This document shows positions 11,751 to 62,261 of a stretch of DNA of 64,000 nucleotides, one piece after another. A model generated the notes under the pieces. That model saw only the letters and a list, made by a program, of their open reading frames with translations. It ran no database searches and was not told the DNA's origin. This DNA comes from a virus: positions 36,520 through 100,519 of the IMG/VR virus record IMGVR_UViG_3300049844_000277. One strand, 5' to 3'. Within the stretch, counting starts at the first letter, position 1; each line of letters starts with the position of its first letter. The position numbers and the translations under genes are program-made.

Positions 11751-12380
11751 TTAAGTACCGGCTCCACGGGAACCTCCTTCACAGAACATCATTCGCCGTA
11801 GGTCATCAGCATGCTGCTGGTCAGTAAGGACCATTTGCTCCAGCATGACCTTAAGCGACAAATTATCTCCGGCCATGTCTGACAGATGTCGTAACTCTTC
11901 AATCAATTGCTTCTCAGTTTGTAGAAGAGTCATGAAAATCTGGTGGAGGTCACTCATGTTCGGGATGACACCTACCTTAGGAATAGGTTCTCCGCCTAAC
12001 GCCGTAATCTTCATTGCGAGATGGTAGGCGTCCATCCGCTCTTCTTTGATGTGCTCTTTAAAGTGGTCGTAGATAACATCTCTAAAGTGCGCACGAATAC
12101 GATCGCCATAATTCATATACATGAAGATGATGGTATATTTGTAGCGCAGCAACTTATTACACTGAGCCACTACCTTATCCTGGGCAACCGCGAAGAATCC
12201 TTCCTCGGCCGATACAGCAAGAGGATGAGCACCAGCAGATGCTGTGGCAAGCGGAGGCATGGCGAACATCTCCTCCGTGTGCGGGGATGACTCCATTGTG
12301 TCCGCCATTGGACTGCTAGGAACTGGAAGACTCGAGCCACTCTCAGCCATGGAAGTACCCACTTTGTAGCGCTGCGTCAT
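11751..12380 (-). CDS. Dps/ferritin-like four-helix-bundle protein with ~70-aa N-terminal extension
   Basis: ...YMNYGDRIRAHFRDVIYDHFKEHIKEERMDAYHLAMKITALGGEPIP... and ...LLQTEKQLIEELRHLSDMAGDNLSLKVMLEQMVLTDQQHADDL... follow the Dps pattern (F..lH..f.e....d.iAERi.aLGG.P ... gD..t...l). Confidence 0.55.
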   Translation of the reverse strand: MTQRYKVGTSMAESGSSLPVPSSPMADTMESSPHTEEMFAMPPLATASAGAHPLAVSAEEGFFAVAQDKVVAQCNKLLRYKYTIIFMYMNYGDRIRAHFRDVIYDHFKEHIKEERMDAYHLAMKITALGGEPIPKVGVIPNMSDLHQIFMTLLQTEKQLIEELRHLSDMAGDNLSLKVMLEQMVLTDQQHADDLRRMMFCEGGSRGAGT

Positions 12381-15300: not shown

Positions 15301-18300
15301 AAGTACCCTCCCACTCCTCAGCGCTAACCATTACCCTCCGGCGGTCCGTGCCTATAAAAGTATCCGCGCGTACCTTTTCCCACGGAGTCCAGACATAGAG
15401 CGCCTTACCGTTACTTACGCGCTTACGGCGATACGAGACTACATGTTCGTGGTTAGGTGTTACACATAAATCAAGTTCACGGCTGCGCGTATGTATCAGA
15501 TCTCCGTCGAACGGCATGGATACTAACGCGGTCGGCTTCTGCCATTCAAATTCCCGGGTGTCTAAGTTAACCGTAGCGACACGAGTTTTTCCGGTGTACT
15601 TAGAAAAACGAACCCACCCTTTTTCTGTAAGAATATCTGTTTGATCATCGTAACATTTTGGCGTAGTTTTCCCGGTAATATGCTCGAGAAATCCCTTTAC
15701 GTTTCTCTTTTGGAGTTTGGGGTTATCTGATTCGTGCGTACCAATCACGGCGCCTACCGCGTGAAACAAGTTCTGACGAAGCTTCGCTTGTTCATCCGGC
15801 GGAAGAATTGGAGATTCAATTTGCTTCCGTAATGACTGATTATGAAGGATAGCGCTTTGGTACAGGTAGTTCGAATCACCTACTACGAGCTCAGAGCCAC
15901 TCTTCCCCGGAAGAATGGGTCGCATTATTGGAGGAAGAACAGGCAACTTGGATAGGACGTACGCATCTCCCGGCTTGAGCTCCTGCCGATTCAGCGCCTC
16001 AAGGAACTTCAACTGCTTTACTGCGTCATCTAGCTTCGTACCGGAGAGCGACTTAATAGAGTTACGGAGCTCCGCGATACGCGCCTTAACGTCGATAGCG
16101 TTAAGCTTTTTCTTTACCGCAGCGCCACCATTCGTATGGTGATACTGGTCAAAATCTTTCGCGGTCATCCCCAGCAAGCGACGGGCAGGGTCGGCGAATA
16201 CAGGATTTACAACGGGCTCGGCGAGCTCAATGTGGCTCCACCGTGTTCCAGTGGTACCGCCAGTAACCGCGGGGTCAAACAATCCCCCACGTTCAGCGGC
16301 CAAATCTTTAGCGCGTACTAACTTCTCATTTTGTACTTCGCCAGATGACATCCGTAGAATGTCTTTATCGGTAAGCGGAGAGAGCGTGCTGATACTTCCA
16401 CGCGAATCAACTTTGACCCCTGCGCCATGCAGCATACCGATGAACTTGTCATAAACGAACGACGACTTGAGTGGAGGGAGAGGCAGTCCCAGCTGAATCG
16501 CCCGCCAGAACTCATCGTTCTTCTGGCTCTTAATAGCCGCCGTCTCTCGAAGCACGTTCCGCGCATTATGTGCAACGAGGGCATTGAACTCCATTTTACC
16601 GACGGCTTTCGCGCCTTCGTCACCGCCCTTAATTGGCTGCTGATTAACGTCGTACGCACCCGTACCGCGCGCGGCGTAGTTGGTCTCCGTGGTCTTAAAC
16701 AAGCGAAGTACGTATTGCGGCCCAACCAGGATTCCCGGAATCTTTTTACCCGACACAGGGTCTATCAGCGTTTCCTTGTCCTTGACCTTGTGCTCCTTCA
16801 GTAAATCCTTTGCCCACTGTACGTTGTCACGCCCTGAAAAGTTTTCAACGACAATAGGTTTACCGATTTTCTTGGCAACCTTAGCGACACACGTCTCTAG
16901 TATTTGCGACGGATTGATTCGGGAAATTACGCCAGCCGAGGTATACAAAACCTCAATCGGCTTACCCGTCTCATCTTGAAGCATCTTGTGATCGGGAACA
17001 ATAAGGGAAACAACGCCCTTGTTTCCGTGGCGTCCTGTGTTTCCGCACCATACTGATTTACCATTTCTGCGAACATACAAAACATGTCCAGGAACAGTTA
17101 CACAGTAAACTGGTGATTTGTACGAATCTACAAAACATTCCACCTGACCCTTCTGTCGTTTGATATGTCCATGATTCACAGTAGGTGTTAATTTCGAATT
17201 AATAATTCGTACCTGCCAATAATCACGACACCAAAAATCTTTACCTTTGATTGTTTGATACCCTTCAGCTTTCGCTAACGACACATTAGCAGCTTTACCA
17301 ATATGTAGTGCGAGACGCTGAACATCATCCGCCAAACGTTTGGATGTTGTTTTGTAGCATATCGGTTGGCCATTTTTAGTATGACCGTCACCCCACATCA
17401 ACCAGTTGAATAGCGTCTCTTGATCCGCTCGAGACCAAGCGAACACCTCAAGCGGGATAAATTTCTCGTAAGACTTACCGAACTGTTTAAAGTACTGCCA
17501 ATATTGCTTGGAATGAATACGAACCTTATCACCTGTGTCCGTGAATAAAATCCCTTCCTCACGAAGAAACTTTTCTAACTGTTTTCGATTTGGCTGATTA
17601 ATTTGCGTAATCTCTATGCCGTAAGTACCGGATTCTTCAATCGTAATGAGATTACCTTCAGATAAAAACGCACCGAGAAGAGCGGCTAAGGTTTTAGTCG
17701 GAAGCGCTTTATCATCTAAAACACGTAAACCCCGGCCCCCTTGTCCCGCGCGCACAGTTATCGAGTCAAATACAAACGACTCAGGAGAGTGCCCCACCCA
17801 AATCCCATCCTTCTTATAACTGACCCTTTTTCCTGCGATTTCATACGCCGGTAAAAGTTGGAAAGATTTCTCGTTGCGCGGTTGAACGTACATATGATGT
17901 CCGTCGGTCACAAACAAATCTACCTGTTGTGATTCGATGCGGTACATCCGTCCGCCTTCTGGATACGAATGAATTGCGTCGGGCTCTAGGTACTCGATAT
18001 TTTCGCCATTCTGTAACGTACAAATCTTATCCGTAATACGTACATCCGCTATCGGTTTCCACCCTTCCCACGTGAGAACCTCAGTCTCTGCATCATAACA
18101 GAGCTTGTCTCCGACGCGCATCGGCTCACGGGTCTTAACCGTTACAACGACACGCTTGTCCGTCACATAAACATCCATGACTTCACCTTCGAAGTCGTGG
18201 TCCCACGTACGAACAAGTTCCCGATACGGCGTAACTAACGTCTTCTTTAGGTTACCGAGAAGCGCATCAGACGCCGAAAGTTTACCTCGTGTGACTCCAG

Positions 18301-22362: not shown

Positions 22363-25300
22363 TTATACAGGCTGATTTTGTTGCGCCATTTGCGCCTTCG
22401 CCTGCTGTCCTTGTTGGTTCTGAAGATCTTCCAGGCGTTGAATGACAACCGCATGCATCACAGCGTCTTCCTTACTTAAGCTATCCAACTGTGAACGCCT
22501 AGAACCAACATCCAGCCCCATGAGCTGCTGCACTATCTGGTCAGCCTGCGCGATGACCGCCTGCTGGTCGTAGTTGAGCCCAGGAGTACCTTGAGCCTGT
22601 AGCTGAACCTGCTGGGACAAGTTATTCTGTAGTTTTCGTAGCTCATTCTGGACGCGCTGATTGTGCCGCGCCTCATCAAGAGTTTCTTGTAGACGCTTCT
22701 CTCGTTCTGCGTCCAAATCAATGTCGAGTCGCTCTAGTATGGTAGTCATTGAGACGTACGAGGGACCCGCTTGCCCGGTAGCCATGCTGAGCAGTAATTG
22801 TTTAGACTCAGTGTCATCGACCATCTTCAAAGGCGTAAGTTTCGCCTCTATCTTCTCCCAGCCAAGATACCGGGACATCTGGTCGCTGTACCACTGTAGT
22901 AGGTCATTCATATCATCCGCGTGCCCTTGCGTTTGATTCTGAATGAGCCGGAGAGTTGCCTCCATGCCTGCTTTAGTTAGTCCACCGTAGAGGAACTCCT
23001 GCGGAATACCTAACGCAGCCATAATGCTCTTCTCAGCTTCTTGAAGCTCACCGAGCGTTAACATCGCCCGTCCATCGCCACCAAGATTGGATACACCAAG
23101 AGCTACTGGTGCCATCATTATGTGTAAGGGGTCACGTCGCCAGCGACGAATATTTTGTTTCATTTCATCTTGCCAACGCGCAAGAGAAATCATTTGCGTA
23201 AAATCTTGCTGTCCGTTTTGTGCGGGATGCAAGATACGCATTGGCACGACGTGCTCCAGCGCGATCGAATTTTTAGTAGCCCCACCCGCGATACAAAACG
23301 TGGAATCCTCCGCGATCTTGAAGTCAATGTATTGTTCCTCTTCCGACTCCTCTACCACGCTCACTCTCGCCGCAAAATAATCTTTCCAGAAAAAGCCACT
23401 CTTGCCGATGGTAATCTCTTCCGCATCCTCCCAATTCCATAGCGCGTAAAGCCGCTCTTGGGACGCACCGCTAACCCGTACGTGGTAACTCGGTCCGTTT
23501 GGGGTAATAACACGCCCATCAGCAAGCGCGTGAATCGGGGTAATGTGCTCACGAATCGTCGCAATACATCCTACGTGAAGGAGCATACGGTAAACATCAT
23601 ACGCAAGGCCCGCACTGGAGGTGGCGAGAGTATCTTGCCCTTCCCGCGTGTGACCATCCGCCTCCCAGAGACCTTTCAAGAATGCGAGCTTTACAGAATC
23701 CGGCGCATGAAATACTTCCGAAGGAACGCGCTTAACGCGCGCGGTTCCCGGAACCATGCCCTTGATGAGAGCCTTCACAATCACATCACACAAGGTAACC
23801 ATGCTACAGTTACCTCTCTGATTGTATCCACCGCACTCCAAGCCAAACTCTCGCCGAATTGCTTCCCGGAGGGGCTCTTCCGTCTTACTGCCCATCGCAA
23901 TCATAACGGTACGCTGGTTACAGGAACCATTTCCAACGTAATGCCCGAGGATATACGCGAAGTCCTCTGTCATCGGGCGCGTCGCGGGGAGGCGTTTTGG
24001 AACGGACCCTTCTTTCAGCTTCCTACGCGCAATCTTCCCAGGGACTCCCTTCACATGCTCACCGGCGCTCTCCGCCTCAAACGCCTGCGCGGAGGGTAAT
24101 GACATCGCGCTGTAAACGTAATTCTCGGTGTTCGCGAAACCGGTGTACTTAGCAACATCTACCTGCTGCGGCTCCGACGGAATTGTCCGGGGGTAGAGGA
24201 TATAATCACCCTTCTCGAACTGTTCCGCGGGACACATCACCTCTTCGTACAAATGCGGATTCTGAAGAATCTCCGACGACGTCTGCTTGTCTTTCGTATC
24301 CGACCGACGTGCGTCGCTTGTCCGTCGAAGGGTAAGGATGGGATGGTGCGGGGAAAATACCCCGCTGAGATGCCGAAGCCCCGAAAGCGTAATACGGCAT
24401 CCGATTTCATCATCCTTCGCATCCCGATACCACTTCTGCTCGACTGGACGCCACCGCCCGAGGTGTGTTCTCACCAAGTCGCCAACACGTACATCATCCG
24501 CGGGCACGAGACCGGTAGACGTCTCAATGAGTGTATCGAGACTGACGCACTCGTTCGCCTTCCTTAGCGTCATGGTGTAGAGGAAGAGCTTGATTGTCGA
24601 CGCAAGCGGAGGAAATCCCCACTGCTGGTCAATACCCGAAGGACTTGGAACCTTGATATGAAAAAGAGCGTCCTTCTCAAAACGAAACGTCTTGTTGTCT
24701 CGAATGTTTTCCAAGAACTCCATAGGCATCGAATTAATAAGATGCTTTGACCCCGATTTAACTTGGTCCTTAACGTCCTGCGGGATGTTATAGTAGTATA
24801 CAGATTGTCCCGTAATCGGATTGTAATCTATATCCATTAGCTTGGGATCCCACCGAATAATATGGACCCGGCTAGCAGCTAGAATCTTACGGTCAACGAC
24901 TGTACCACGCACATCTCGCTTGCAATGCAGGCAGTGGTAGGTGAAAGCCAGCGATTTCAGCTCAAACTTGTAATCAGTGTGCTGAATAGCAACGAGTTGC
25001 TGACAACTAGGACACTTCAGACTACGAACGAACGGCTTATAAATTGATGTAAAATGATTGCCATATATGTGCTTATCGAGCGACGCCATGAGAAGCGCAC
25101 TCTTAATCTTCAAAGTTTTTTCAAAAAGACGGCGATAGTTGCGCCGGAGTGCTTCATTCGATGTTCCGTACTCGAGGTCAGTTACGACGAGCTCTCCAAA
25201 TTTACGCAGAGCCGCGTAAACATGTGCACTATTATACATCAAATATTCGCACCATTTAAAGAGATCTTTTAGCTTTCTTGGTACAAAACCCGTTAGGAAG

Positions 25301-25374
25301 TCATGTGCAGGGTTTGGGTGTGAAGCCGCCCGGTCAAAAACGGACATTGTATCAGTGTTAGGAAGGTCAGCCAT
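22363..25374 (-). CDS. Portal-like protein interrupted by an intein
   Basis: The extein is about 576 aa. N-terminal Zn-ribbon-like CPSCQQ...CLHCKR. The central part reads ...EKSIMAALGIPQEFLYGG.... The long Gln-rich helical C-terminus is reminiscent of podovirus portal barrels. It is the first gene of the large minus-strand block. The assignment is tentative. Confidence 0.45.
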   Translation of the reverse strand: MADLPNTDTMSVFDRAASHPNPAHDFLTGFVPRKLKDLFKWCEYLMYNSAHVYAALRKFGELVVTDLEYGTSNEALRRNYRRLFEKTLKIKSALLMASLDKHIYGNHFTSIYKPFVRSLKCPSCQQLVAIQHTDYKFELKSLAFTYHCLHCKRDVRGTVVDRKILAASRVHIIRWDPKLMDIDYNPITGQSVYYYNIPQDVKDQVKSGSKHLINSMPMEFLENIRDNKTFRFEKDALFHIKVPSPSGIDQQWGFPPLASTIKLFLYTMTLRKANECVSLDTLIETSTGLVPADDVRVGDLVRTHLGRWRPVEQKWYRDAKDDEIGCRITLSGLRHLSGVFSPHHPILTLRRTSDARRSDTKDKQTSSEILQNPHLYEEVMCPAEQFEKGDYILYPRTIPSEPQQVDVAKYTGFANTENYVYSAMSLPSAQAFEAESAGEHVKGVPGKIARRKLKEGSVPKRLPATRPMTEDFAYILGHYVGNGSCNQRTVMIAMGSKTEEPLREAIRREFGLECGGYNQRGNCSMVTLCDVIVKALIKGMVPGTARVKRVPSEVFHAPDSVKLAFLKGLWEADGHTREGQDTLATSSAGLAYDVYRMLLHVGCIATIREHITPIHALADGRVITPNGPSYHVRVSGASQERLYALWNWEDAEEITIGKSGFFWKDYFAARVSVVEESEEEQYIDFKIAEDSTFCIAGGATKNSIALEHVVPMRILHPAQNGQQDFTQMISLARWQDEMKQNIRRWRRDPLHIMMAPVALGVSNLGGDGRAMLTLGELQEAEKSIMAALGIPQEFLYGGLTKAGMEATLRLIQNQTQGHADDMNDLLQWYSDQMSRYLGWEKIEAKLTPLKMVDDTESKQLLLSMATGQAGPSYVSMTTILERLDIDLDAEREKRLQETLDEARHNQRVQNELRKLQNNLSQQVQLQAQGTPGLNYDQQAVIAQADQIVQQLMGLDVGSRRSQLDSLSKEDAVMHAVVIQRLEDLQNQQGQQAKAQMAQQNQPV
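23269..24549 (-). mobile_element. Intein 4 (427 aa, LAGLIDADG type) in the portal-like gene
   Basis: Junctions are TLRKANE|CVSLDTLIETSTGLV... and ...STFCIAGGATKN|SIALEHVVP. Dodecapeptide motifs are ILGHYVGNGS and LKGLWEADGH. Confidence 0.8.
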
Positions 25375-30275: not shown

Positions 30276-31250
30276 ATGGCTGCCGCCGAAAAACCTGTAT
30301 TGCCTACGTGGACCAAACCGAACCTCGTGACTATTGAACCAACACCGAGGAACCCTCCGAAGCTCATTGAACTCGCGGTCAAGGATATCCTCACGAAAGC
30401 GGGAGACAATATCCGAACAGGAGAACTTCCCGATATTGAAGAGCTTGCCAAGAGTATCAAAGCCGAAGGATTGCTAGAACCAATCATCGTTACTGCCGCA
30501 GAGACGCCGGGAAAGTACTCGGTGATTGCAGGGCACCGCCGACTGACCGCCGTTCGAAGCTTGGGCGAAGAATCTGTCCCTGCGTTGGTAGTAGATGCGG
30601 ATAGCAATCGACGCATCAAGCTAGCGCTCATCGAAAACATCCAACGAAAGGACATGGCTCCGTTGGATAAAGCGAAGGCGTTCGCGAAGCTCATCAAAAA
30701 TACAGGGCTGGAGCAGCAGCAAGTGGCTCAGGCTATCGGAGTTGCCCCAGGATACGTCTCACAATATTTGACTCTCCTCGCGCTACCGGAATCAGCTATC
30801 TCTGCGCTTCGAGATGAAACGCTTTCATTCACACAAGCGCGAGTTCTTTGCCGACTACTTCCGCACATAAAAGAAATCGACGCCCTAGTACTCGAAGCCT
30901 CCAACCTTACCGCTGCCGCGATGGAGACAAAGGTTGCGCATATCCTTGGGACGCTCAAAGCATCGAAAGCTGAAGCTGAAGCTGAAGCCGATGCTGAAGA
31001 TGATAAGGTAAACCCTGAGGATGCGGACGGACGTCCGAAGAAGAAGAGAGTAGCTAAGACCGTGGTACCCGATAAAGCAGTCGAGTATTACGCCGAAGCG
31101 GACTTCCATCCGCTCAAGAAAGAAGACATTCGGGAACTGATGGTCAGCTACAAGCGAAAAGAAGTAAACGCTGAGAGCGAGAAAAAGAGAGAAGAGTATC
31201 GCCTGATTCTCAAGGGAATCACGTTAGCAGCGGATCTTCGTCTTAAGTGA
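30276..31250 (+). CDS. ParB-like nuclease-domain / partition-family DNA-binding protein
   Basis: GLLEPIIVT...YSVIAGHRRLTAVRSLG and ALIENIQRKDMAPLDKAKAF, with an HTH reading LEQQQVAQAIGVAPGYVSQYLTL. GGAGGAG RBS. Confidence 0.8.
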   Translation: MAAAEKPVLPTWTKPNLVTIEPTPRNPPKLIELAVKDILTKAGDNIRTGELPDIEELAKSIKAEGLLEPIIVTAAETPGKYSVIAGHRRLTAVRSLGEESVPALVVDADSNRRIKLALIENIQRKDMAPLDKAKAFAKLIKNTGLEQQQVAQAIGVAPGYVSQYLTLLALPESAISALRDETLSFTQARVLCRLLPHIKEIDALVLEASNLTAAAMETKVAHILGTLKASKAEAEAEADAEDDKVNPEDADGRPKKKRVAKTVVPDKAVEYYAEADFHPLKKEDIRELMVSYKRKEVNAESEKKREEYRLILKGITLAADLRLK

Positions 31251-31259
31251 AGAGATTCA

Positions 31260-32093
31260 CTACTCAAGAAAAACATCTTGAGACGTTTCTACTTGATTTG
31301 CCAATAAGTATGTCTTGATTTGCGCGAGAGTGTCCTTCTTAATCTGCCGGACACGTTCAGAAGATAAATCTACTCTTCTGGAAATCTGCCGGAGATTTTT
31401 AGGCTCTTCTCTCGCGCCGTAATACGCCAGGACAATATATTTATCTCGTTCGCGTAGAGATAAGTTATCTAACGCACGACGTAACATAGTAAGGCCGTAC
31501 GTATTCACTAAATCACGTTCTAAGCTCACATCGCAGTGTCCAGCTACGTCAATAGCGCCAACAGCATCCAACGTAACGTGCGGCTGCTCTACATCAACAC
31601 CGCCACCACTCTTACGTTGCGCTCTTAACGCTTTCTGCTTATGGGCAGGGACACGAATAATTCCTTGACTATCTAACTCCTCTAGTATTTTCTCGCGAAC
31701 CCACCACGCAGCGTATGTAAGAAACTTAGTATTGCGTGAGGTATCAAAACGATCCGCCGCGACTAGAAGTCCTACGTTACCGGCGGATATCAGTGACGTC
31801 AATAGTTCGTTGTCGAACTTTGGTCCCTTAGTGCGATAAGCATATTCTTTCGCTACTTTCACAACAAAGCGAAGGGCTCCCGAAATAAGTCGATCACGCG
31901 CTTTAAAGTTTCGCGGAGTATTACACCTAGGACATCGGGTAGCTGAAGATCCCAAGCTATACGAAGACCTGCACGCAGAACAAGTGCGGTAGGCCTTTAC
32001 TAGATCGCGTTCCTCTCGTTGAGGAATGAATTCATTACCACGTAAATCAGCGAAATAAGCCGAGACTACACGGTCATTGTCCATTGGGTTCAT
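31260..32093 (-). CDS. Sigma-70-family RNA polymerase sigma factor with N-terminal Zn-ribbon insertion
   Basis: Region 2: LISAGNVGLLVAADRFDTSRNTKFLTYAAWWVREKI. Region 3-like: IRVPAHKQKALR. Region 4: LSLRERDKYIVLAYYG...NLRQISRRVDLSSERVRQIKKDTLAQIK. N-terminal CSACRS...CPRCNT. Confidence 0.85.
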   Translation of the reverse strand: MNPMDNDRVVSAYFADLRGNEFIPQREERDLVKAYRTCSACRSSYSLGSSATRCPRCNTPRNFKARDRLISGALRFVVKVAKEYAYRTKGPKFDNELLTSLISAGNVGLLVAADRFDTSRNTKFLTYAAWWVREKILEELDSQGIIRVPAHKQKALRAQRKSGGGVDVEQPHVTLDAVGAIDVAGHCDVSLERDLVNTYGLTMLRRALDNLSLRERDKYIVLAYYGAREEPKNLRQISRRVDLSSERVRQIKKDTLAQIKTYLLANQVETSQDVFLE

Positions 32094-34128: not shown

Positions 34129-34167
34129 CCGCACGAGCTACTCGTGCCCACAACCCGAGGAGCTCTC

Positions 34168-37100
34168 ATGGAGAAGCCCGCAGAAATCTGCAGCGGATGT
34201 CCTCGAGAAATCGAGACAGAGACCCATCCCTACGGTTATGTTGAATCGTGGATTGATTCAAACGCCGAACTCATCATCATAGCGGAAGCTCCTGTCTGCG
34301 ATCGCCACGGTAACGTTCCTAGCTCTTTCGACGATGACAGCGGTAAAATCATTCGAACCGCCGTATCCGAGCTACGTAACTTACCTTCGCACAGTAAGCT
34401 AGCGGTCTCGTATACGTACGCAGTACTCTGTACAAGCAACCAGGGCGACAAAGACCCCGAAAAAGCCGTACTGCAACGGTGCCGTACGCTGCTCCAAGCT
34501 GACTTACGTCGCGCAAACAAGAACGCCGTCCTGCTGGTAATGGGTATGTCTGCCCTTCGCGCACTAGAAATAAAAGCCGCGAAGTTGAAGGACATGCAGG
34601 GGCGATTACTCCAAAAGCAGAAAATTGGAGAAGGTGATGACGCTCCGATATTCGATGTCGTCGTAACCGTCTCGACAAAACAGTTGTTCGCGATGCCGGG
34701 AATCTACACGACGTTCGTAGCGGACCTGCGACGAGCTGCGGACGCTGCGAGCGCAGGTGGATTAACACACGTTACCCCACTCGAAAAACTAACCGAAAAA
34801 TACGTAATCCCGAAAACAATCGAAGAAGTACGCCAAATCTGTCGCGAAATACTGAATTATCAAGAAGGTAAAGTATCTGCAGATAACTGGCCTATCTCTG
34901 TAGACACCGAGACAAACACCAAGTTTCCACACCGAGAAAACTTGAAAGTATTGGCGGTGTCCTTCGCATGGGCGGAGGGTAAAGCTACTGCAATTCCATT
35001 AGAGCACCCCACTACACCCTACGCGTACCAAGACGCGATACCGTACGTACGCGAAGTCTTAGCGAGCAAGAAGCCGAAGTTCCTTCATAATGCTAAGTTC
35101 GACCTTAAAGTCTTCATGAAAGCGGGCTGGCCGATTAACGGGTTCGCTTGGGATAGCATGCTAGGGGAACATGCTCTCGAAGAAGATAAAAAGGGACAGT
35201 ACGGATTAAAGCAGTTGACCCGTACTTTCTTCCCGGAATTCGCGACATACGCCGACTCTCTTCAAGAAATGCTCACGCACGAAGAGGGCGACTCGCAGCT
35301 CGACAACCTGAGGAAAGCGCCAAAAGCTTCAACTTCGAAAGATGGGGGATTTGAAAGTATCCCACTTCCCACGCTATTGCTTTATGCGGCAGTCGATGCA
35401 GATATGACACGGCGGCTAGTGTTACTGCAGGAAAAAAGAATTACCGACGAGCAGAACAGAGTAATCGTAGAAACGAATATAACGAAGAGAGAGCAGGCGC
35501 TGGCGATTTCGGCGAGGAAGAAAATACGGCTGAGAATTGCGCCGCTACATAGTGAGACGGAGATGTTGAAGAAGTACATGGTGCTCTACCCCGTCCCAGA
35601 ACTCTGTTCCGCTGATAAGCCGGTAAGACAACTAGTACTGAACAACGTATTCCCCGTTACCCCAGCTCTCGCGAGAATGGAGTTTAAGGGCATACGGATA
35701 GACAGACCGTACCTAACTACGTTGCGTGAAGCGTTGGGAAAAGTCGTCACAGAAACCGCTGCAGAGCTACAGGATATGGCGGGCAGAGAGATAACTCTCA
35801 ATAGTCCGGCAGAGATAGCTGAAATCCTGTTCAACAGCGGGTTTATACATCCAACAACTCACGCCCCCACGACTTATCCCCTCACAGGCATCGGTAAGAC
35901 AAAAACGGGACAGATACAAACCACCGAGAAAGTGATGCAGTACTTGGTGGCGAAGTATCAGTGCCCCTTTGCAGCTAAAAAACTAATCTACGCCAAGGCA
36001 TATAAAGCGAAAAATACGTTCTGTCAGAATGTGTGGGATCTCTCGGAGCTCGACGGGTATCTACACACGAACTACAACCAGCACGGCACAAATTCGGGTA
36101 GACTGTCCTGTGTCGCGGGAGAAACCGTACTAGATACTAATTACGGAAAAATCGAGATACAGAATCTCGATCTGGAGAAGATGCCGGGGATTACCATCCA
36201 GACCCACGAACTCCGCGAACAACCGATTCTACGTAAAATAGAAAAAGGCATTGAAGAAATGTTCGAGGTCGAACTCGAAGACGGGCGCACCATCACCGTG
36301 ACTAAAAAACATCGCTTCTTGACGCCGACGGGGTGGAAACGACTCGAGGAACTGTCAGAAAATGCCGAAATACTCTGCGCCGCCTCCGTGGGTAGTGGAC
36401 CAAATATGCGACTCGTTACAACCCGGATAAAAAGCATACGTCCCGTAGGTCCTAAGAAAGTCTGGGACCTCACAGTAGCGGTCGATCACTCTTACATCGC
36501 CCACGGATTTGTTAACAAAAATTCCAACGATGAAAACATGCAAAACATCCCCAAGAAATTGGCGGGTGTTAACATTAAGAAAGTGTTCCTCCCGGACGAT
36601 GATTCGTATGTCTTCGTCAACGCTGATGCGAAGGGTGCCGAAGTACGAATCCTAACCGCCTACTGCCGAGACCAAGCGCTCATACAATCGCTCAACGCGG
36701 GGCAGGACACGCATTGTTTCATCGCGTCCAAGATTGTTGAAATCGTACGTCAGAGTCCTGGTGCAACGGCGGTTCTCGGAAGCATGAATCTAAGCGATGA
36801 GTATCCTCTGACGTACGAAGACTTCGCGGCTAGAGACAAGCTAAAAGAAACCAATAGTAAGTACGGGGCGATGCTCGACAAATTCAGAACCGCTGTCAAA
36901 CGCGTAGTGTTCGGTATTCTGTACGGCGCCGGTCCTCAGAAAATTGCGGAAACTATTGGTATCAGTCTAGAGCAAGCACAACAGCTCATTCACACTCTGT
37001 TCGCTTTGTTTCCGTCCATCAAGACGTACATGGCGCAGACAAAGTGGGAACTACAACAATTTAATTTAGTCGAAACGTTCTTCGGTAGACGCCGTAGATT

Positions 37101-37527
37101 TAGTGTATCGGGAGCGCCGAAGTATCAAATAGGGAGAGCTGAACGTCAGACAGTTAATTTTAAAATCCAAAGCACAAGCTCTGATATCGTAATGGGACGA
37201 TTACTAGCAATCGAAGAACCTCTCAAAGATTTGGGAGGTAGACTTCTATTGACAGTGCACGACAGCCTTGGGTTTCAAATCAAGAAAAAATATATCCGAC
37301 AGCTACCTGATTTCATTTATACGTATTTGGAGAAGGGTGCAGCAGACGCCCATCCATGGCTCCCAGTCGCATTTAAATGGGACTACGAAGTTGGGTCATC
37401 ATACGGCGAACTCAAATCACTGGAATCCTACCTTGCCAACACGAAAATAGAGGAATACTCGAACGATGCCTACGTCGCCGAGGCTTTCACAGAAGAAGAC
37501 GCAAGAACCTCCCTCTCCGAACCCTGA
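34168..37527 (+). CDS. polA: Family-A DNA polymerase with N-terminal UDG-family-4-like domain and 3'-5' exonuclease domain, interrupted by a mini-intein
   Basis: UDG-like: LIIIAEAPVCDRHGNVPSSFDDDSGKII. Exo I/II/III: SVDTETN, HNAKFDLKVF, YAAVDADMT. Pol motif A: VFVNADAKGAEVRIL; motif B: RTAVKRVVFGILYGAG; motif C: LTVHDSLGF. ATG 34168 follows GAGGAG; the track ORF begins at GTG 34144. Confidence 0.9.
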   Translation: MEKPAEICSGCPREIETETHPYGYVESWIDSNAELIIIAEAPVCDRHGNVPSSFDDDSGKIIRTAVSELRNLPSHSKLAVSYTYAVLCTSNQGDKDPEKAVLQRCRTLLQADLRRANKNAVLLVMGMSALRALEIKAAKLKDMQGRLLQKQKIGEGDDAPIFDVVVTVSTKQLFAMPGIYTTFVADLRRAADAASAGGLTHVTPLEKLTEKYVIPKTIEEVRQICREILNYQEGKVSADNWPISVDTETNTKFPHRENLKVLAVSFAWAEGKATAIPLEHPTTPYAYQDAIPYVREVLASKKPKFLHNAKFDLKVFMKAGWPINGFAWDSMLGEHALEEDKKGQYGLKQLTRTFFPEFATYADSLQEMLTHEEGDSQLDNLRKAPKASTSKDGGFESIPLPTLLLYAAVDADMTRRLVLLQEKRITDEQNRVIVETNITKREQALAISARKKIRLRIAPLHSETEMLKKYMVLYPVPELCSADKPVRQLVLNNVFPVTPALARMEFKGIRIDRPYLTTLREALGKVVTETAAELQDMAGREITLNSPAEIAEILFNSGFIHPTTHAPTTYPLTGIGKTKTGQIQTTEKVMQYLVAKYQCPFAAKKLIYAKAYKAKNTFCQNVWDLSELDGYLHTNYNQHGTNSGRLSCVAGETVLDTNYGKIEIQNLDLEKMPGITIQTHELREQPILRKIEKGIEEMFEVELEDGRTITVTKKHRFLTPTGWKRLEELSENAEILCAASVGSGPNMRLVTTRIKSIRPVGPKKVWDLTVAVDHSYIAHGFVNKNSNDENMQNIPKKLAGVNIKKVFLPDDDSYVFVNADAKGAEVRILTAYCRDQALIQSLNAGQDTHCFIASKIVEIVRQSPGATAVLGSMNLSDEYPLTYEDFAARDKLKETNSKYGAMLDKFRTAVKRVVFGILYGAGPQKIAETIGISLEQAQQLIHTLFALFPSIKTYMAQTKWELQQFNLVETFFGRRRRFSVSGAPKYQIGRAERQTVNFKIQSTSSDIVMGRLLAIEEPLKDLGGRLLLTVHDSLGFQIKKKYIRQLPDFIYTYLEKGAADAHPWLPVAFKWDYEVGSSYGELKSLESYLANTKIEEYSNDAYVAEAFTEEDARTSLSEP
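36109..36522 (+). mobile_element. Intein 5 (138-aa mini-intein, no endonuclease domain) in DNA polymerase
   Basis: Junctions are TNSGRLS|CVAGETVLDTNYGKI... and ...HSYIAHGFVNKN|SNDENMQNIPK. The spliced sequence restores the PolA (T/S)GRLSS....QNIP motif. Confidence 0.8.
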
Positions 37528-37528
37528 T

Positions 37529-37792
37529 GTGGTAGTGCACACGCCTCTAGCGCTACACACCAAGAACCTCAAAGAAGCTGTAGGTACCCTCGTCATCTTT
37601 TACCTCGTAAACAACGGAAGACCTCTTCGAGGAATTTTGTTGGAATATGACGATGAGACAGTAGTTATCGCTCCTAAAACTACAATTCCCCGCGAAAAGA
37701 TAGTAGCCTTCTATCAGGCCAAAAATGCTCCTCCCAAAAACAAAGAAGTTCCAAGATCTTCTGTTCGTCGATACAGAAACGACGGGACTTGA
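37529..37792 (+). CDS. Small protein with possible Sm-like fold (start uncertain)
   Basis: GTLVIFYLVNNGRPLRGILLEYDDETVVIAPKT..IPREKIVAFY resembles an Sm1-type beta-strand pattern. GTG lies right after the polA stop; the track ORF starts at 37466. Confidence 0.3.
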   Translation: MVVHTPLALHTKNLKEAVGTLVIFYLVNNGRPLRGILLEYDDETVVIAPKTTIPREKIVAFYQAKNAPPKNKEVPRSSVRRYRNDGT

Positions 37793-38297
37793 CCCTACTA
37801 AGCATGAGATACTCGAGGTCGCGGCGATACGTACAACGCCTGATGCGAAGCAGGTGCTGACGACGTATCACGCGAAAATAAAGCCACTACGTATCGAAAC
37901 CGCGGAACCAAAGGCTCTTGAGATAAACAAGTATTCCGCGGAGGAGTGGACCTTTGACAAGTGCGTCAATCCTGAGGTTGTGGTAAGAGCCCTAATGGCT
38001 ATGTCGCACAATACGGTGCTAGTAGGGCACAACGTATCGTTCGATGAGGGATTTCTTACGGCTTTATTGCGTCAATTCTACGCGACAGTTCCGTGGGGAT
38101 ACCATAAGATCGATACAGTCGCACTCGCGTGGCCCCTATTCATGTACACTCCCGCTGAAGGAGTGAGCTTAGAAAAGGTTTGTAGATATCTCGGTACTAC
38201 AAACAAACCTGAGCATCGAGCAATGAACGATGCCCTCGCGTGCAGGGATGTGTATTTAAGTCTGATGTCTCGTTGGGAAAAAGCTTGTGAAGCGTAA
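37725..38297 (+). CDS. DEDDh (DnaQ-like) 3'-5' exonuclease
   Basis: LLFVDTETTGLDP, LVGHNVSFDEGFL and HRAMNDALACRDVY. Confidence 0.8.
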   Translation: MLLPKTKKFQDLLFVDTETTGLDPTKHEILEVAAIRTTPDAKQVLTTYHAKIKPLRIETAEPKALEINKYSAEEWTFDKCVNPEVVVRALMAMSHNTVLVGHNVSFDEGFLTALLRQFYATVPWGYHKIDTVALAWPLFMYTPAEGVSLEKVCRYLGTTNKPEHRAMNDALACRDVYLSLMSRWEKACEA

Positions 38298-38311
38298 CCT
38301 GTAGATACGTA

Positions 38312-38413
38312 AAATCTTTGTTCCAGTACATCTGGAGTCAGCGTAGCGCTGACATGCTTCCCAGAGCTCTTAGTTTGGTAGCCTAGCTAACAAATATAAG
38401 GTCAATGGCCGCC
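38312..38413 (+). repeat. Copy A of a ~100-nt block-conserved repeat containing a GTCAGCG-TAG-CGCTGAC hairpin
   Basis: Blocks shared with copy B: ATCTTT, GGAGTCAGCGTAG(C/T)GCTGACAT, TTAG, AGCCTAGCT, AAGGTCA, GGCCGCC. Confidence 0.7.
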
Positions 38414-38480
38414 GGGGAAAAATGAACTCCCTGAACCCCACCGAGCTCGAGCAAACAATAAATATATAGTAGAACATAGA

Positions 38481-38590
38481 AAGATCTTTCCTGCCCGGTA
38501 CCATTTCGGAGTCAGCGTAGTGCTGACATATGGCCCGATGTTAGCGCGAAGCCTAGCTTCAAGCTAAGAGAAGGTCATTATGGGCCGCCT
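38481..38590 (+). repeat. Copy B of the block-conserved repeat
   Basis: Same ordered blocks as copy A. The single stem difference (C to T) preserves pairing as G-U. Confidence 0.7.
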
Positions 38591-38793
38591 CCGCCTCAAG
38601 GGCAATATCCTTAAGTATGTGGCGCCTATATTGGACATTCCGCGGAATCATAGAACTAAGAGGAAAGACGTAGGGAGCGTAGGGATTCGAGCTGTAAACA
38701 CAGCGCCCGCGTAGTGCGGGCAGCCGTAAGCTGTTCAGATAAGCTATGAGATAAGCTTGAAATCAACCATATCCTCACTGAATGAGGAATCCC

Positions 38794-40398
38794 TTACGCG
38801 TAGAATTTCAGGTCATTAGACACAAGCTTATGTGCAAACCATCCGAACAGTTGTGCATGAAGACAATCGTCAGGTAATTGGGGACTGTGTCGCCAAACCT
38901 TTTTACCTGACGACGTAACTTCTTCATAGACGTTCAGAATATCTTTAATCGCTTCACGTGATTCTTCTCGTGGCGGATATACAACCGAACCCCGCTTCAG
39001 AAACATGAGATAGTTATCAATCATCGTCGTGCGGTCAGCGAGATACCTGTCCAAGCCATTGTGCTTTATCGGCTGACCTAACGCTCCGTACTGCATCATG
39101 TGCACGCGGTGAGCGCCTAGACGGTCTCGTAGCGTCGCATTAGGTAGTGCGCCTTCGCCAGCGTCACCGATGACCATCGCAACAGCGTAATGCTGGCAAA
39201 TCGCAGCGATATTCTCGACATCTGCGACGGCGTTGCTTCCTGGGTAAATTCGGAAGTAGAGCGTACGTAACTTCTGTGTTGCGGGATGAAAGCCCCACAC
39301 CCATAGGACCGTACGGCTAACGCCCGTCGTTCCGCCGCCCGACCAATCAACGCCGGCAACAGTAATCGAACAGCCTTCCAAATTTTTACCTGGCGTAGGG
39401 GATATCTGGGGGCCTGTGCACAGTGCTTCGAGCTCCTCCAGTGAAATAAGTCTACGACCTACGGCATCTGATACACCCAAGACCTCATTGCGGAACTTAG
39501 CCGCGGAAAACATGTCATGGTCACGGAGGATATCATCCCAACGCGCCTGAGCGTCCTCGACTGCACTCGGCTTTTCGGGCGTATTTTTTACACACGACGG
39601 GATGTTCAGCGGCATAATCAATTGAGAAATGTGAAAGCCTTTAATGGAGTGTTTTCCAGTACCCTTGTCGGCAATACGCATATCGATCCACTGCCCTGCG
39701 CGGGGATTTAAAACCTTCCCACAATTAAGACAAATGGGGCCGTGTTTACCGAGAGACTTCTCACTAATAACGAAGTTGTATTTACTACACCCCTCGCACT
39801 TCATCACCCATTCGCTCTGAGAAGACTGATCCCACAAAAATTGAATGGAGTTCTCCATAGTTTTCGGAGTTCCGGCGTAAGTTTCGAACCGGTACGCGGA
39901 ATTCTTCATACACGCCAAAATTACGGGAATGACACTGTCGTATAATACGTCCTGTACTTCGTCAAACAAACAACGGTCAGCGGAAAAACCACGCGCACGA
40001 TCCGCGTCATCGGTCGCGTACGTGAACCCGTTCTCTGACCCGTTCGTATACGACCGATGTAATACGCGATCCGCGTGATCTGGAGATAAGAAGTATTTCT
40101 TAATCAACGGCGAATACGACAATGTTTTACCAACACGCGTGTTAGAGAACAAGAGAGTTTGCTCGCGTGAAGGACTGGAATAGTAACTCTTGAAAAATGG
40201 GCGAGAAACAGATTCAGATATAATAAAGTTAGCCAGAGATGTGCTTTTACTGACCTGACGCGCAGTCATCAGAAGCGTCGATTTATAACCTCCGTCATAT
40301 ATCGATTTGAAAAATGGATAGTCTGTAAGACTAAAGGGAGCGCCGTCTAGCCATAATAGACGCTCAGCCACTTCCGAAAGACGTTTACTTCCAATCAC
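38794..40398 (-). CDS. terL: Terminase large subunit
   Basis: N-terminal ATPase with deviant Walker A (LMTARQVSKSTSL) and Walker B (DRCLFDEVQD). C-terminal RNase-H-like nuclease acidic motifs (VAGVDWSGGG, MVIGDAGEG). Zn-ribbon CEGCSK...CLNCGK. GTG start. Confidence 0.65.
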   Translation of the reverse strand: MIGSKRLSEVAERLLWLDGAPFSLTDYPFFKSIYDGGYKSTLLMTARQVSKSTSLANFIISESVSRPFFKSYYSSPSREQTLLFSNTRVGKTLSYSPLIKKYFLSPDHADRVLHRSYTNGSENGFTYATDDADRARGFSADRCLFDEVQDVLYDSVIPVILACMKNSAYRFETYAGTPKTMENSIQFLWDQSSQSEWVMKCEGCSKYNFVISEKSLGKHGPICLNCGKVLNPRAGQWIDMRIADKGTGKHSIKGFHISQLIMPLNIPSCVKNTPEKPSAVEDAQARWDDILRDHDMFSAAKFRNEVLGVSDAVGRRLISLEELEALCTGPQISPTPGKNLEGCSITVAGVDWSGGGTTGVSRTVLWVWGFHPATQKLRTLYFRIYPGSNAVADVENIAAICQHYAVAMVIGDAGEGALPNATLRDRLGAHRVHMMQYGALGQPIKHNGLDRYLADRTTMIDNYLMFLKRGSVVYPPREESREAIKDILNVYEEVTSSGKKVWRHSPQLPDDCLHAQLFGWFAHKLVSNDLKFYA

Positions 40399-46728: not shown

Positions 46729-47331
46729 ATGGACCTCTACTGTCTTCGTGTTCGTAGGAACATCGCTGGACGTAAATTTCCCTTCGATAGAGTGTATCTC
46801 GCGAAATACGGGGATCACGTTATATTCAAAAGATTATTCAGGTATGCCTTCATCCTTCCCGTTGAAGGCGTACTAAAGGAAACGCTGTACTGTCTCCCCA
46901 TTGAAGACAGCATGACGCACGCATTCGACAGAGTAGAAACGCCTGAGAAAATTCCAGATGTAGAGTGGAAGACGCTCATCGACTCGACGGACTGGGTACT
47001 CGCGGTACCGATTCTATCGAAGTACGTGACCGCTAACATGCCGAGATATATTATTGCCAAGTCCACGGTGCCCCGAAGAGACAAGAAAAACTCTAACGCG
47101 TGCGCAAACCCGTTTCCAAACATGACGTACTTGCAGACACCCGAGCAAAACATTCGGCCAATATGTGTCGCATGTCCGAACTTTATCCAGCATCAGAACG
47201 GTCACTGCGAACTTGGAGATAAGCTCTGCTACGACTCTCTTTCCCTGGGAATCCGAAATCACTTTGAAGAAGGCATGATGGTTCCTCCTGCCCCGGAAAA
47301 AGAACAAGTGACTGAGGAGGGGAACGACTAA
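46729..47331 (+). CDS. Hypothetical Cys-containing protein, first gene of the RT operon
   Basis: ATG at 46729 (MDLYCLRVRR...) lies just after the terminator; the track ORF start 46630 would read through the hairpin. Contains CVACPNFIQHQNGHCELGDKLC. TAATG overlap with the RT start. Confidence 0.5.
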   Translation: MDLYCLRVRRNIAGRKFPFDRVYLAKYGDHVIFKRLFRYAFILPVEGVLKETLYCLPIEDSMTHAFDRVETPEKIPDVEWKTLIDSTDWVLAVPILSKYVTANMPRYIIAKSTVPRRDKKNSNACANPFPNMTYLQTPEQNIRPICVACPNFIQHQNGHCELGDKLCYDSLSLGIRNHFEEGMMVPPAPEKEQVTEEGND

Positions 47332-48467
47332 TGCCTGTCTACAAACAAAATTTCCTTGAGCGAATTGAAGTACGCGAGCCACTCATCAAAGGCGTACCCC
47401 TTATCGTCGATGACTGGAGTCTGGCATTCCAGCTAGGTTTTACGGGTAAGACCGCGTGGTACATCATCCATGAACGCGCCAGTATGTACCGGGAGTTCAT
47501 GCTGAAAAAGAAGTCTGGGGGTCTCCGTAGAACGTTTGATCCAACTAACCTCCTGCGCATTTTCCAGAAACAACTACGCGCACGCATTCTGTTCCCGCTC
47601 GTATCTCGCCTAGGTCCGCACGTAGCCGCGTATCAGGTCGGTAAGAGCACGCTTGATGCGGCAAACTGGCACCTGCGCGAGTGTAAAATCTGCGACGACA
47701 CGACCCGTCCCGGCACGAGTCCTGTGAAACATGAGTGTCCTCGACGGGGTGTGAAGTTCAAAATGGATTTGAAGGATTTCTTTCTATCGACTCGTCGGTC
47801 CTGGATACGACAGTATTTCCACGAAGTCGTCGGATACAATCACTACGTCTCGTCGATTCTGGGGCACCTACTGACGACGAGTTATAAAGATGAGCGGAGA
47901 AAAGACAGGAACGGCGTTCCGCCAGGCGCATTAACAGCTGGCGATATTTGTAATCTCATCTGTGATTGGAAGATAGATCAACCGCTTATGGCGGCACTAC
48001 CCACAGGCTGGAAGTACACACGGTACGCCGATGACTTGTATTTCTCGTACGACGCACCCCTTCCATCAAAAGAAGTAAACAAGATAATCCGACTAGCCTC
48101 GGACACCATCACCGGCTCCGGTTACCGGGTAAATTGGAAAAAGCTCCAAGTGCAACACTGGAGCCGGCCCCAGCGAGTACTAGGTATCAATATCAACAGA
48201 AAACTAAACATCCCTGCGACTGAGTACCGTCGAATGCACATGATTCTGTATAAAGCAAAGAAGCATGGATTCCAGGCGCAACTTACGTGGGCAAAGAAAG
48301 CCGATGTTCCGGAACTTCACGCCTGGATAACCGGCAAACTGAATTACTACGCGCGATTCGCACCAGATAAAACCAATAAACTACAACGGCTTTATCAAGA
48401 AGCGAAGGACGCGAATCCAAGCGAAGAGGCCGCGGTGTTCAACTTTGGAACCGGTGCAAACCCATGA
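47331..48467 (+). CDS. Reverse transcriptase, retron/Abi-like
   Basis: YREFMLKKKSGGLRRTFDP (RT1/2), AAYQVGKSTLDAANWH (NAxxH-like), KMDLKDFFLST (RT3), GVPPGALTAGDICN (RT4), YTRYADDLYFSY (YADD, RT5), RVLGININ (RT7, VTG-like). There is a Cys-containing ~25-aa insertion between NAxxH and RT3. GAGGAGG RBS. Confidence 0.8.
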   Translation: MPVYKQNFLERIEVREPLIKGVPLIVDDWSLAFQLGFTGKTAWYIIHERASMYREFMLKKKSGGLRRTFDPTNLLRIFQKQLRARILFPLVSRLGPHVAAYQVGKSTLDAANWHLRECKICDDTTRPGTSPVKHECPRRGVKFKMDLKDFFLSTRRSWIRQYFHEVVGYNHYVSSILGHLLTTSYKDERRKDRNGVPPGALTAGDICNLICDWKIDQPLMAALPTGWKYTRYADDLYFSYDAPLPSKEVNKIIRLASDTITGSGYRVNWKKLQVQHWSRPQRVLGININRKLNIPATEYRRMHMILYKAKKHGFQAQLTWAKKADVPELHAWITGKLNYYARFAPDKTNKLQRLYQEAKDANPSEEAAVFNFGTGANP

Positions 48468-62122: not shown

Positions 62123-62183
62123 TAGTCTCGACTTCACTAAACCGTCTGCTTCACCAGCGCGGTAGACCTTGGGGTTTAGTGAA

Positions 62184-62256
62184 CTCCCCGAGTAGGACTC
62201 GAACCTACGACCTAGCGATTAACAGTCGCTCGCTCCACCAGCTGAGCTATCGGGGA
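62184..62256 (-). tRNA. tRNA-Asn (anticodon GTT)
   Basis: The reverse complement folds as TCCCCGA-TA-GCTC-AGCTGGTG-GAGC-G-AGCGA-CTGTTAA-TCGCT-AGGTC-GTAGG-TTCGAGT-CCTAC-TCGGGGA-G. The 7/4/5/5-bp stems are perfect, the T-loop is TTCGAGT, and CCA is not encoded. Confidence 0.9.
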
Positions 62257-62261
62257 AGATG

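Follow-up and report, generated by a model that had tools for sequence, protein, structure and literature searches.

Tandem three-hairpin modules at the end of a replication operon in a small clade of large uncultured phages

The locus and its repeated unit

The DNA considered here, 64,000 nucleotides (nt) of the virus record IMGVR_UViG_3300049844_000277 (positions 36,520 to 100,519 of that record; hereafter the window, in whose numbering coordinates are given), contains a 496-nt intergenic gap (38298-38793) between two convergent genes. On one side lies the gene of a DEDDh (DnaQ/RNase T-like) 3'-5' exonuclease (37725..38297, + strand; Pfam RNase_T, 1.6e-24), whose nearest solved structures are the PolC/epsilon exonuclease domains and RNase T and which is the final gene of a + strand replication cluster. 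On the other side lies terL, the gene of the terminase large subunit (38794..40398, - strand; Pfam GpA_ATPase, 5.3e-08); its tblastn matches are annotated phage large terminases, with a best isolate match 32% identical. Between the two, beginning 25 nt past the exonuclease stop, is an array of repeats. Judged by sequence comparison, it consists of two real copies of a conserved, non-coding three-hairpin module and a truncated third.

A preliminary description of this DNA had proposed that a module of about 100 nt is duplicated in the gap, and all the blocks that it named are there, displaced by 1 nt at most: ATCTTT (38314-38319 in copy 1, 38484-38489 in copy 2), GGAGTCAGCGTAG(C/T)GCTGACAT (38334-38355 and 38508-38529), TTAG (38370 and 38541), AGCCTAGCT (38380-38388 and 38550-38558), AAGGTCA (38398-38404 and 38571-38577) and GGCCGCC (38407-38413 and 38583-38589). 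The spacing between the copies is about 174 nt. A single change within the 7-base-pair (bp) stem, also described before, sets them apart: C38347 in copy 1 vs T38521 in copy 2 turns a G-C pair into G-T. Chance does not explain the repeat, because the 17-mer hairpin is confined to this locus in the window (0.3 matches expected by chance at <=3 mismatches), AGCCTAGCT occurs only twice in the 64 kilobases (kb), and a model made from relatives alone matches both copies. In this covariance-model search, which had been suggested as a check, the model (R2) was trained on 20 units, all of them from relatives and none from the window. It scored unit 2 at 56.7 bits (E 1.6e-18) and unit 1 at 40.4 bits (E 1.3e-12), and it also found the third, truncated unit at 38689-38769 (19.0 bits, E 7e-5); nothing further rose above noise in the 64-kb window. 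With the other model used, R1, unit 1 scored 59.8 bits, unit 2 70.5 bits and the terminal unit 19.7 bits.

The unit is longer than the proposed 100 nt, since it includes a purine-rich junction box (38469-38489 for unit 2, 38650-38667 for the terminal unit). We describe it as read on the window + strand, and call window-like units type A and the distant version subtype B. Each unit runs from the junction box through three hairpins, P1, P2 and P3, to an ARGGKUC box and then a variable spacer. The junction box has the consensus GAACAAAGARGA, often with AGATCT next to it, and precedes every unit in all relatives. P1 has 4-5 bp and a loop of 5-8 nt, which is GGUACC in most type-A units, and a gap of one nucleotide parts it from P2. 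P2 has exactly 7 bp in every unit and a 3-nt loop (N-A-R) closed by G-U or G-C; the loop is UAG in type A and UAA, CAA, AAA or AGA in the distant subtype, with rare UAU (TAT) loops in two relatives (loci L151 and L142). A stretch of about 10-25 nt leads to P3, a stem of 5 to about 16 bp capped by a triloop closed by C-G. Its apex, AGC-CUA-GCU, is invariant in type A, with UUC, UUA, AUA or GUA as the loop in the distant subtype, and the outer stems are unrelated between units. Unit length is 172-197 nt for the window, about 185-235 nt for its type-A relatives and roughly 120-230 nt over the family.

In the window, unit 1 opens with a degenerate junction or leader box, GTAGATACGTAAAATCTTT (38303..38319, +), which corresponds to AAAAGATCTT in relatives when junctions are compared. 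Its core (38320..38408, +), defined by the R1 and R2 matches, the fold and pair counts, holds P1 (38323-38326 with 38332-38335), P2 (38337-38343 with 38347-38353, loop TAG at 38344-38346) and P3 (38373-38395, apex AGC-CUA-GCU at 38380-38388), all on the + strand. The variable 3' spacer follows (38409..38468, +); its GAGCTC (38443-38448) is kept at the same position in relatives. Unit 2 has the purine-rich junction box TAGAACATAGAAAGATCTTT (38469..38489, +), to be compared with the family consensus followed by AGATCT, and a core at 38492..38581 (+; R1 and R2 matches) with P1 at 38495-38498 and 38506-38509, P2 at 38511-38517 and 38521-38527 (loop TAG, 38518-38520) and P3 at 38541-38567 (apex 38550-38558), again on the + strand. 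From unit 1 to unit 2, P1 shows a compensatory exchange of A-U for G-C, and P3 has an outer stem whose sequence is wholly different.

The truncated terminal unit (38689..38769, +; R1 and R2 matches) is preceded by the junction box ATAGAACTAAGAGGAAAG (38650..38667, +), which aligns with AAAACAAAGAAGAG of the relatives' terminal units. It accounts for two of the three small downstream hairpins that had been listed separately. GCTGT (38691-38695) with ACAGC (38700-38704) is its P1', and GCCCGCG (38705-38711) with TGCGGGC (38715-38721) around a TAG loop is its P2', both on the + strand; a weak P3-like AAGC/GCTT pairing comes after P2'. At the same place, relatives have GGTGC/GCACC and then GACCGCG-TAG-TGCGGTC and similar, which are compensatory changes. 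The third listed hairpin, TCCTCA-CTGAA-TGAGGA (38772..38788), exists as well. It ends 5 nt away from the stop codon of terL, outside the repeated module, and neither strand shows a T-run there.

The variable spacer carries a few conserved palindromic hexamers. In type-A arrays (window, L001, L002, L004, L137, L143) such hexamers (AGATCT, GGTACC, GAGCTC, CTCGAG, CTGCAG, GGATCC, CCGCGG) are about 2-fold enriched, at 26-34 per kb vs 14-15 per kb elsewhere. Against dinucleotide shuffles, z is 3.2-4.5 in the relatives' arrays, 2.2 in the window array and -4.1 in the rest of the window. Subtype-B arrays show no such enrichment. Three further ideas about parts of the unit were rejected. A phage promoter in the junction box is not supported, as the box is not enriched elsewhere in the window (8 matches vs 5.1 expected); kissing of the P2 loop UAG with the P3 loop CUA fails because the loops vary independently (CCA in L137_b, UAU in L151, and subtype B); and a pseudoknot between the P1 loop and the ARGGKUC box would have a pairing of only 3-4 nt, inconsistent between units.

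Relatives, pairing and coding status

A 600-nt region had no nucleotide match among 50,697 phage records. Relatives are found among contigs from IMG/VR and Joint Genome Institute (JGI) metagenomes. Those with a terL 66-84% identical have the gene order PolA (family-A DNA polymerase), exonuclease, gap, terL, and in all of these the gap carries the module in tandem. The order PolA - exonuclease - array is kept in all array-bearing contigs (about eleven), and the array starts 20-30 nt past the exonuclease stop in every one. Those of full length measure 179-194 kb and come from uncultured phages. The exonuclease loci were recovered with an alignment as the query; a single exonuclease sequence gave none.

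Copy number varies from 2 to about 10 units per array. The window has two full units and a truncated one, L001, L002, L137 and L143 have three full units each and a truncated terminal unit, and L004 has four and a truncated terminal unit. Among the fragments, L151 has two full units and a truncated terminal one, and L142/L147 three with a degenerate terminal unit detected by hairpin scan only. With R1 and R2, 30 strong units scoring 48-88 bits were recovered from the window, L001, L002, L004, L137, L143, L142/L147, L146 and L151, and all of these point the same way with respect to their neighbouring genes. L005/L157 (about 10 units in 2 kb), L158 (about 9) and L159 (about 4), whose exonuclease is 38-40% identical, carry a diverged subtype in which box, P1, P2 and P3 keep their order.

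For scans of the family we used a strict three-block pattern and scored its matches with the covariance model. In viral, metagenome and genome collections these scans found no member outside this clade, and in long contigs (187-190 kb) the strict pattern matches one stretch only. Matches in L145, L148-L150 and L152 (Pseudomonadales metagenome-assembled genome) reached <=13 bits and were taken as chance, and so were about 120 matches (L017-L136) to a loose pattern, CCGGTACCN{3,4}CCGGCG. To judge from these sequence scans, the family is so far known only from a small clade of uncultured phages.

More distant relatives, with a terL 45-55% identical, have neither the exonuclease nor the module. 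In two of them PolA is directly convergent with terL and the gap holds other box-plus-hairpin repeats (L007 4600-5100 and L006 4610-4970, - strand of the loci): CTAGCAGTACC followed by a long hairpin four times in L007, and ACTTAGCGGCAT three times in L006. Structured repeats at the PolA/terL junction thus seem to be a wider habit of the group. A second repeat type also stands between the array and terL in L001 (4600-4760, - strand of the locus), L002, L004, L137, L143 and L151. It consists of a box, (T)AGGAGTCACC(AC), and then a hairpin, in 2-3 copies (three in L001, L002 and L143), and its stems are wholly different between phages (GGATC, TCTGGGC, GTCCGGCC, CCGGATC and others). Where a zinc-finger gene described below exists, the last copy is its ribosome-binding site. 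The window is without this second box.

The hairpins are maintained across the family. When 38 distinct units are aligned with the model, pairing holds in 97.6% of the 542 stem cells, a value that falls to 33-46% when partners are slid by 1-3 columns. Both sides have changed in 11 of the 16 pairs, the observed covariation was reached by none of 500 shuffles, and all three helices covary. The comparison of related intergenic regions that the preliminary description had recommended thus yields both compensatory changes and conserved blocks, and its proposal of paralogous structured modules with compensated hairpins is borne out for P1, P2 and P3 alike. In the distant subtype, 100% of P2 cells pair and 5 of 7 pairs are compensatory, in a set that was chosen by hairpin presence and is therefore partly circular. 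The outer stems of P3 always keep their pairing. In fact, distinct P2 stems coexist in a single genome, five in L004 and eight in L157. Thus it is the shape that is conserved and not the stem sequence, which argues against one sequence-specific protein bound to double-stranded DNA.

The array is not coding. In the window region, none of the six frames is free of stops. Units differ in the interval between P2 and the P3 apex (22, 23, 24 or 26 nt), their lengths are not multiples of three, and orthologous spacers are longer or shorter by single nucleotides. Stop codons and spacer lengths together exclude coding, and the possibility that the region is a decayed gene, named earlier as the discovery that would overturn the proposal, finds its answer here. 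Small open reading frames (ORFs) were also considered, namely EEL-type peptides on the - strand and, on the + strand, a Shine-Dalgarno-like AGGAGG followed by a start; they were rejected because neither their frames nor their stops are conserved.

Strand, nucleic acid and rival explanations

In L004, L137 and L151, + strand genes stand both before and after the array, which must therefore be transcribed in their direction there. No per-unit sigma-70-like promoters were found, and terminator-like matches are no commoner than in shuffles and do not occur once per unit; no hairpin is followed by a U-tract. Thus the array is most simply seen as the co-transcribed tail of the replication operon. 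Two further lines of sequence evidence favour folding of the + strand. In an unbiased count, seven wobbles of subtype-B P2 stems pair only on the + strand and none on the other; with two more + strand wobbles in GTG-closed subtype-B stems, the tally in the distant subtype is 9 to 0. In addition, the unpaired + strand positions of the window, L157 and L158 are rich in A (0.40-0.46 A vs 0.16-0.21 T). An unbiased count over P3 is balanced between strands. The change from G-C to G-U between the window copies, put forward earlier as compatible with selection on RNA, is real, but it is poor evidence for RNA. The pair closes the P2 loop, and in type A this closing pair is G-U in 29 of 36 units; it may therefore belong to the conserved loop.

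To explain these results we propose that the array is a set of tandem paralogous non-coding three-hairpin modules forming a multi-copy structured RNA on the replication operon that would be read by a protein, a reading to which we give a probability of about 0.45. We infer transcription, protein binding, processing and a role as decoy, sponge, small RNA or message stabiliser; RNA as the active form we hold to be somewhat more probable than not. The array would be transcribed on the + strand as the tail of the operon that includes PolA and the exonuclease, and every unit would fold as RNA into P1, P2 and P3. The invariant loop features would then serve as recognition sites for a putative hairpin-binding protein: the G[NAR]Y triloop on the 7-bp stem, the C[NUN]G triloop that caps P3, and two single-stranded boxes, one purine-rich and the other ARGGKUC. 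In this way the array may act as a multivalent RNA platform, either whole or as units cleaved at the purine-rich junction boxes.

Several observations weigh against this proposal. The units are related by descent, so that shuffle statistics overstate their independence. Short perfect inverted repeats can also gain compensatory changes through template-switch (quasipalindrome) mutation during DNA replication; thus compensation shows a hairpin in some nucleic acid and is no proof of selection on RNA. Folding of both copies, another check suggested at the outset, was carried through with ordinary single-sequence energies (z of -1.45 and -1.15), and the evidence for structure therefore rests on comparison and not on energy. 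In type-A stems outside the loop-closing pair, 7 G-U vs 4 A-C give no strand bias, and the reverse complement folds slightly better in 16 of 23 type-A units (mean 2.5 kcal/mol). The 2-fold enrichment in 6-bp palindromes hints that recognition might occur at the DNA level or that units pair with one another as RNA. No protein emerged as a candidate binder. Natural RNAs favour GNRA and UNCG tetraloops, and here all loops, at P2 and at the P3 apex, are triloops, with P2 fixed at 7 bp. A triloop on a stem of fixed length is seen more typically in hairpins extruded from DNA, among them the early promoters of phage N4 (PMC4496689). A CCTTCGG apex, tried as a UUCG tetraloop and hence as an RNA hallmark, was rejected once a register check had shown a UUC triloop.

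The strongest rival starts from these last points. The hairpins might work in DNA, single-stranded or extruded by supercoiling, as priming or origin sites or as N4-like promoters for a phage RNA polymerase. The early promoters of N4 have stems of 5-7 bp and a 3-nt loop with a purine at -11, and they require on the template strand a loop 5'-G-R-A-3' closed by C:G, with four A residues and a +1 C downstream (PMC4496689). The likeness lies in short hairpins in tandem, each with 5-7 bp, a conserved G:C closing pair and a purine at the centre of its 3-nt loop; in both cases the stem may have any sequence that pairs, and one strand matters (PMC4496689). P2 shares the stem and loop geometry, with 7 bp in every unit, loops TAG, TAA, CAA, AAA and AGA, and a G:C or G:T closing pair. 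The common subtype-B apex CCTTCGG reads C-GAA-G on the other strand, a motif described as a very stable DNA mini-hairpin (PMC13037366). The array also adjoins the PolA and exonuclease genes, and the phage seems to encode its own non-canonical multisubunit RNA polymerase.

The differences are as many. The template loops of N4 are C[GRA]G, in DNA upstream of early genes, and those of the array are G[NAR]Y, at the end of an operon and not upstream of genes. P2 is one of three hairpins in a unit of about 120-230 nt that also has single-stranded boxes. No conserved spacing of four A residues and a +1 C exists on either side of P2, which is closed by G:C or G:T. The window has only one locus of the motif, and A-rich unpaired positions and conserved single-stranded boxes are typical of RNA. 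To our knowledge, known phage origins are unlike arrays of such three-hairpin units. Nor is an N4-type single-subunit virion polymerase seen in the window, which is 64 kb of a genome presumably of 179-194 kb; its giant ORF of 2836 amino acids (aa) matches multisubunit beta-like families and not an N4 virion polymerase. Taken together, we regard a role in single-stranded DNA as unlikely, while placing it ahead of the other rivals.

That ORF (12377-20887, -) matches the multisubunit RNA-polymerase beta-like families of jumbo phages in PHROGs and also holds a virion-protein or lysin-like segment, and a 599-aa ORF (9086-10885, -) carries RNA_pol_Rpb1 domain 5. These two suggest a non-canonical phage-encoded polymerase, possibly virion-borne. 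The 15-nt gap directly before the PolA start is filled by a further hairpin of 7 bp with a 3-nt loop, at 34131-34147 (GCACGAG-CTA-CTCGTGC on +, a TAG loop on -).

Could the array instead act in cis at the convergent border? A stack of stable RNA hairpins might halt or slow polymerases before they enter terL in the antisense direction, and shield the 3' end of the replication-operon messenger RNA against exonucleases. Indeed, the array ends a + strand cluster that faces terL, its copy number is free, and the more distant relatives that are without the module carry their own box-plus-hairpin repeats in the same gap. The comparison here is with the repetitive extragenic palindromic (REP) elements and bacterial interspersed mosaic elements (BIME) of enterobacteria, which likewise form clusters of stable hairpins in convergent gaps, vary in copy number and may protect message 3' ends. 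REP elements, however, are dispersed in hundreds of copies, and the module has one locus per genome, three ordered hairpins and invariant loops. A roadblock or stabiliser needs no invariant loops, no P2 fixed at 7 bp, no fixed order of P1, P2 and P3 and no conserved boxes. An intrinsic terminator requires a GC-rich hairpin with a U-tract, and no hairpin of the array is followed by one; besides, same-strand genes follow the array in L004, L137 and L151. A border function is thus more doubtful still than a DNA hairpin.

A third alternative takes the repeats as double-stranded DNA sites for a dimeric protein, such as a ParB-like helix-turn-helix (HTH) protein, in a centromere-, iteron- or silencing-type cluster. 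In fact, a protein with ParB_N and HTH_ParB domains is encoded within the replication gene cluster at 30276-31250 (+), 7 kb upstream of the array, where it would be only a putative binder. P2 is a 17-bp near-palindrome with arm positions 1, 3, 6 and 7 conserved, and the palindromic hexamers of type-A arrays could be counted on this side too. The difficulty is that ParB-parS and iteron clusters repeat one palindrome per genome, in contrast to the five P2 stems of L004 and the eight of L157. Stems that differ within a genome and yet keep near-perfect complementarity could not all be read by one protein, and positions that it did not contact would lose their symmetry. P3 stems vary in both length and sequence, the exceptions to pairing are G-T on one strand only, and a spacing of about 120-230 bp is unlike that of iterons or parS clusters. 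We consider such sites improbable.

Hardly better placed, and if anything a shade worse, is the pac-type or terminase-recognition element that the preliminary description had offered as an example, marking the start of packaging. Its appeal is that the array abuts the 3' end of terL in the window, L001, L002 and L143, and that an endonuclease VII gene shares a small operon with terL. A pac or cos site requires a conserved physical link to the terminase genes, and this the array is without; the adjacency to terL is broken in relatives, and the invariant neighbour is the exonuclease. In L004, L137 and L151, conserved genes of the array strand, spanning 0.2-0.5 kb, intervene between array and terL; they encode a CxxC zinc-finger protein of 61-67 aa (homologous between L004 and L137) and a lipoprotein. 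Since same-strand genes part the array from terL in these three relatives, the link is to the replication operon and not to the terminase. Moreover, the array is found past the 3' end of terL and on the other strand, away from any small-terminase gene. In the 179-194 kb contigs the locus is internal, at differing positions, and so is not a fixed genome end. What is kept, finally, is structure rather than sequence, with an asymmetry between strands. As a side observation, the zinc-finger protein (CxxCxGxG; L004 4821-5006 and L137 1219-1422, both -) has a sub-threshold resemblance to anti-TRAP/DnaJ zinc fingers, at 21 bits against a cut-off of 65.

Least probable by far is a decayed gene or small-peptide coding region: GC-rich relatives have open frames of 100-135 codons over parts of the array and the window has a 44-codon ORF on each strand, but the long frames are absent from the window with its stops in every frame, conserved blocks fall in different frames in different units with spacers that vary by 1 nt, and conservation tracks base pairing and not codons.

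Some further genes of the window deserve mention. PolA itself (34144-37527, +) contains an intein (Intein_splicing, residues 678-793), and a 1003-aa protein (22363-25374, -) has Hint and LAGLIDADG domains. A sigma-70-family factor (31260-32093, -) is encoded within the replication gene cluster. A reverse transcriptase gene (47331-48467, +; RVT_1, 2.4e-14) stands amid unannotated ORFs. A link between it and the array was rejected, as the gene is 9 kb off and no template or variable repeat of the diversity-generating retroelement kind is found nearby (44-53 kb).

Known RNA systems and what the array may mean

The module matches no catalogued RNA family. At gathering level, Rfam 15 finds in the window only a tRNA-Asn (62184-62256) and nothing at the array, and ARAGORN likewise reports only tRNA-Asn (62183-62257), with no transfer RNA or transfer-messenger RNA at the array. 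With E up to 10, the 4227 Rfam families give two sub-threshold chance matches in the region, and a permissive threshold on the L005, L001 and L142 arrays gives one chance match.

Among phage RNAs, the Rfam families ROOL, GOLLD and HEARO are similarly phage-borne, non-coding, discovered by comparison and unassigned in function. They are single large folds, whereas the array is a series of paralogous small modules with no Rfam match. Arrays of the ToxI type and multi-copy small-RNA genes share the head-to-tail structured non-coding units, the variable copy number and a plausible single-stranded cut site. ToxI-type repeats are near-identical, about 36 nt long (about 34-45 nt), and lie just upstream of a toxin endoribonuclease gene. 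Units of the array, by contrast, are longer and only block-conserved, and their neighbours are the exonuclease, terL and the small zinc-finger and lipoprotein genes, with no toxin-like gene adjacent. The same applies to arrays of clustered regularly interspaced short palindromic repeats (CRISPR) and to solitary-repeat RNA anti-CRISPRs, with near-identical repeats of 24-48 nt and, in the arrays, unique spacers of similar length; here the units are far longer, conserved in blocks, and their stems differ. The nut boxB of lambda-type phages and the put sites of HK022 are also small hairpins with conserved loops read as RNA, and HK022 put has two hairpins one nucleotide apart, like P1 and P2. These elements are promoter-proximal, occur once per operon and have other loop sequences; in the array, 2 to about 10 units stand at the operon end.

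A bolder proposal, which we hold as an unlikely one, is that the array belongs to an undescribed class of phage multi-copy RNA, or of one-strand hairpin signal, in which a 7-bp/triloop hairpin is read by a dedicated phage or host protein. In one possible version, the array would offer many binding sites and so act as a decoy or sponge, titrating an RNA-binding or immune factor of the host at a dosage set by the number of copies. In another, also possible, the hairpin-promoter or hairpin-origin logic of N4 would serve a non-canonical multisubunit phage polymerase.

The element itself is real and conserved, and of a new type: in a small clade of large uncultured phages, three-hairpin modules form an array that is joined to the replication operon. 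The attractive assignment to a packaging site is thereby corrected as unsupported. If the array works as RNA, it would represent a new family of phage non-coding RNA with head-to-tail paralogous units, free stems and fixed loops, built around a triloop hairpin of invariant length and changing in copy number from 2 to about 10 between close relatives. This combination of fixed loops, free stems and variable copies suggests a dosage-dependent interaction with a protein, and the family would add to the very short list of structured RNAs from large uncultured phages with their own multisubunit RNA polymerases. If it works as DNA, hairpin-based signalling, known mainly from phage N4, would extend to another polymerase or another replication system. 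In both cases, the well-defined loops, stems and boxes provide a testable handle in a group of phages without a cultured member.

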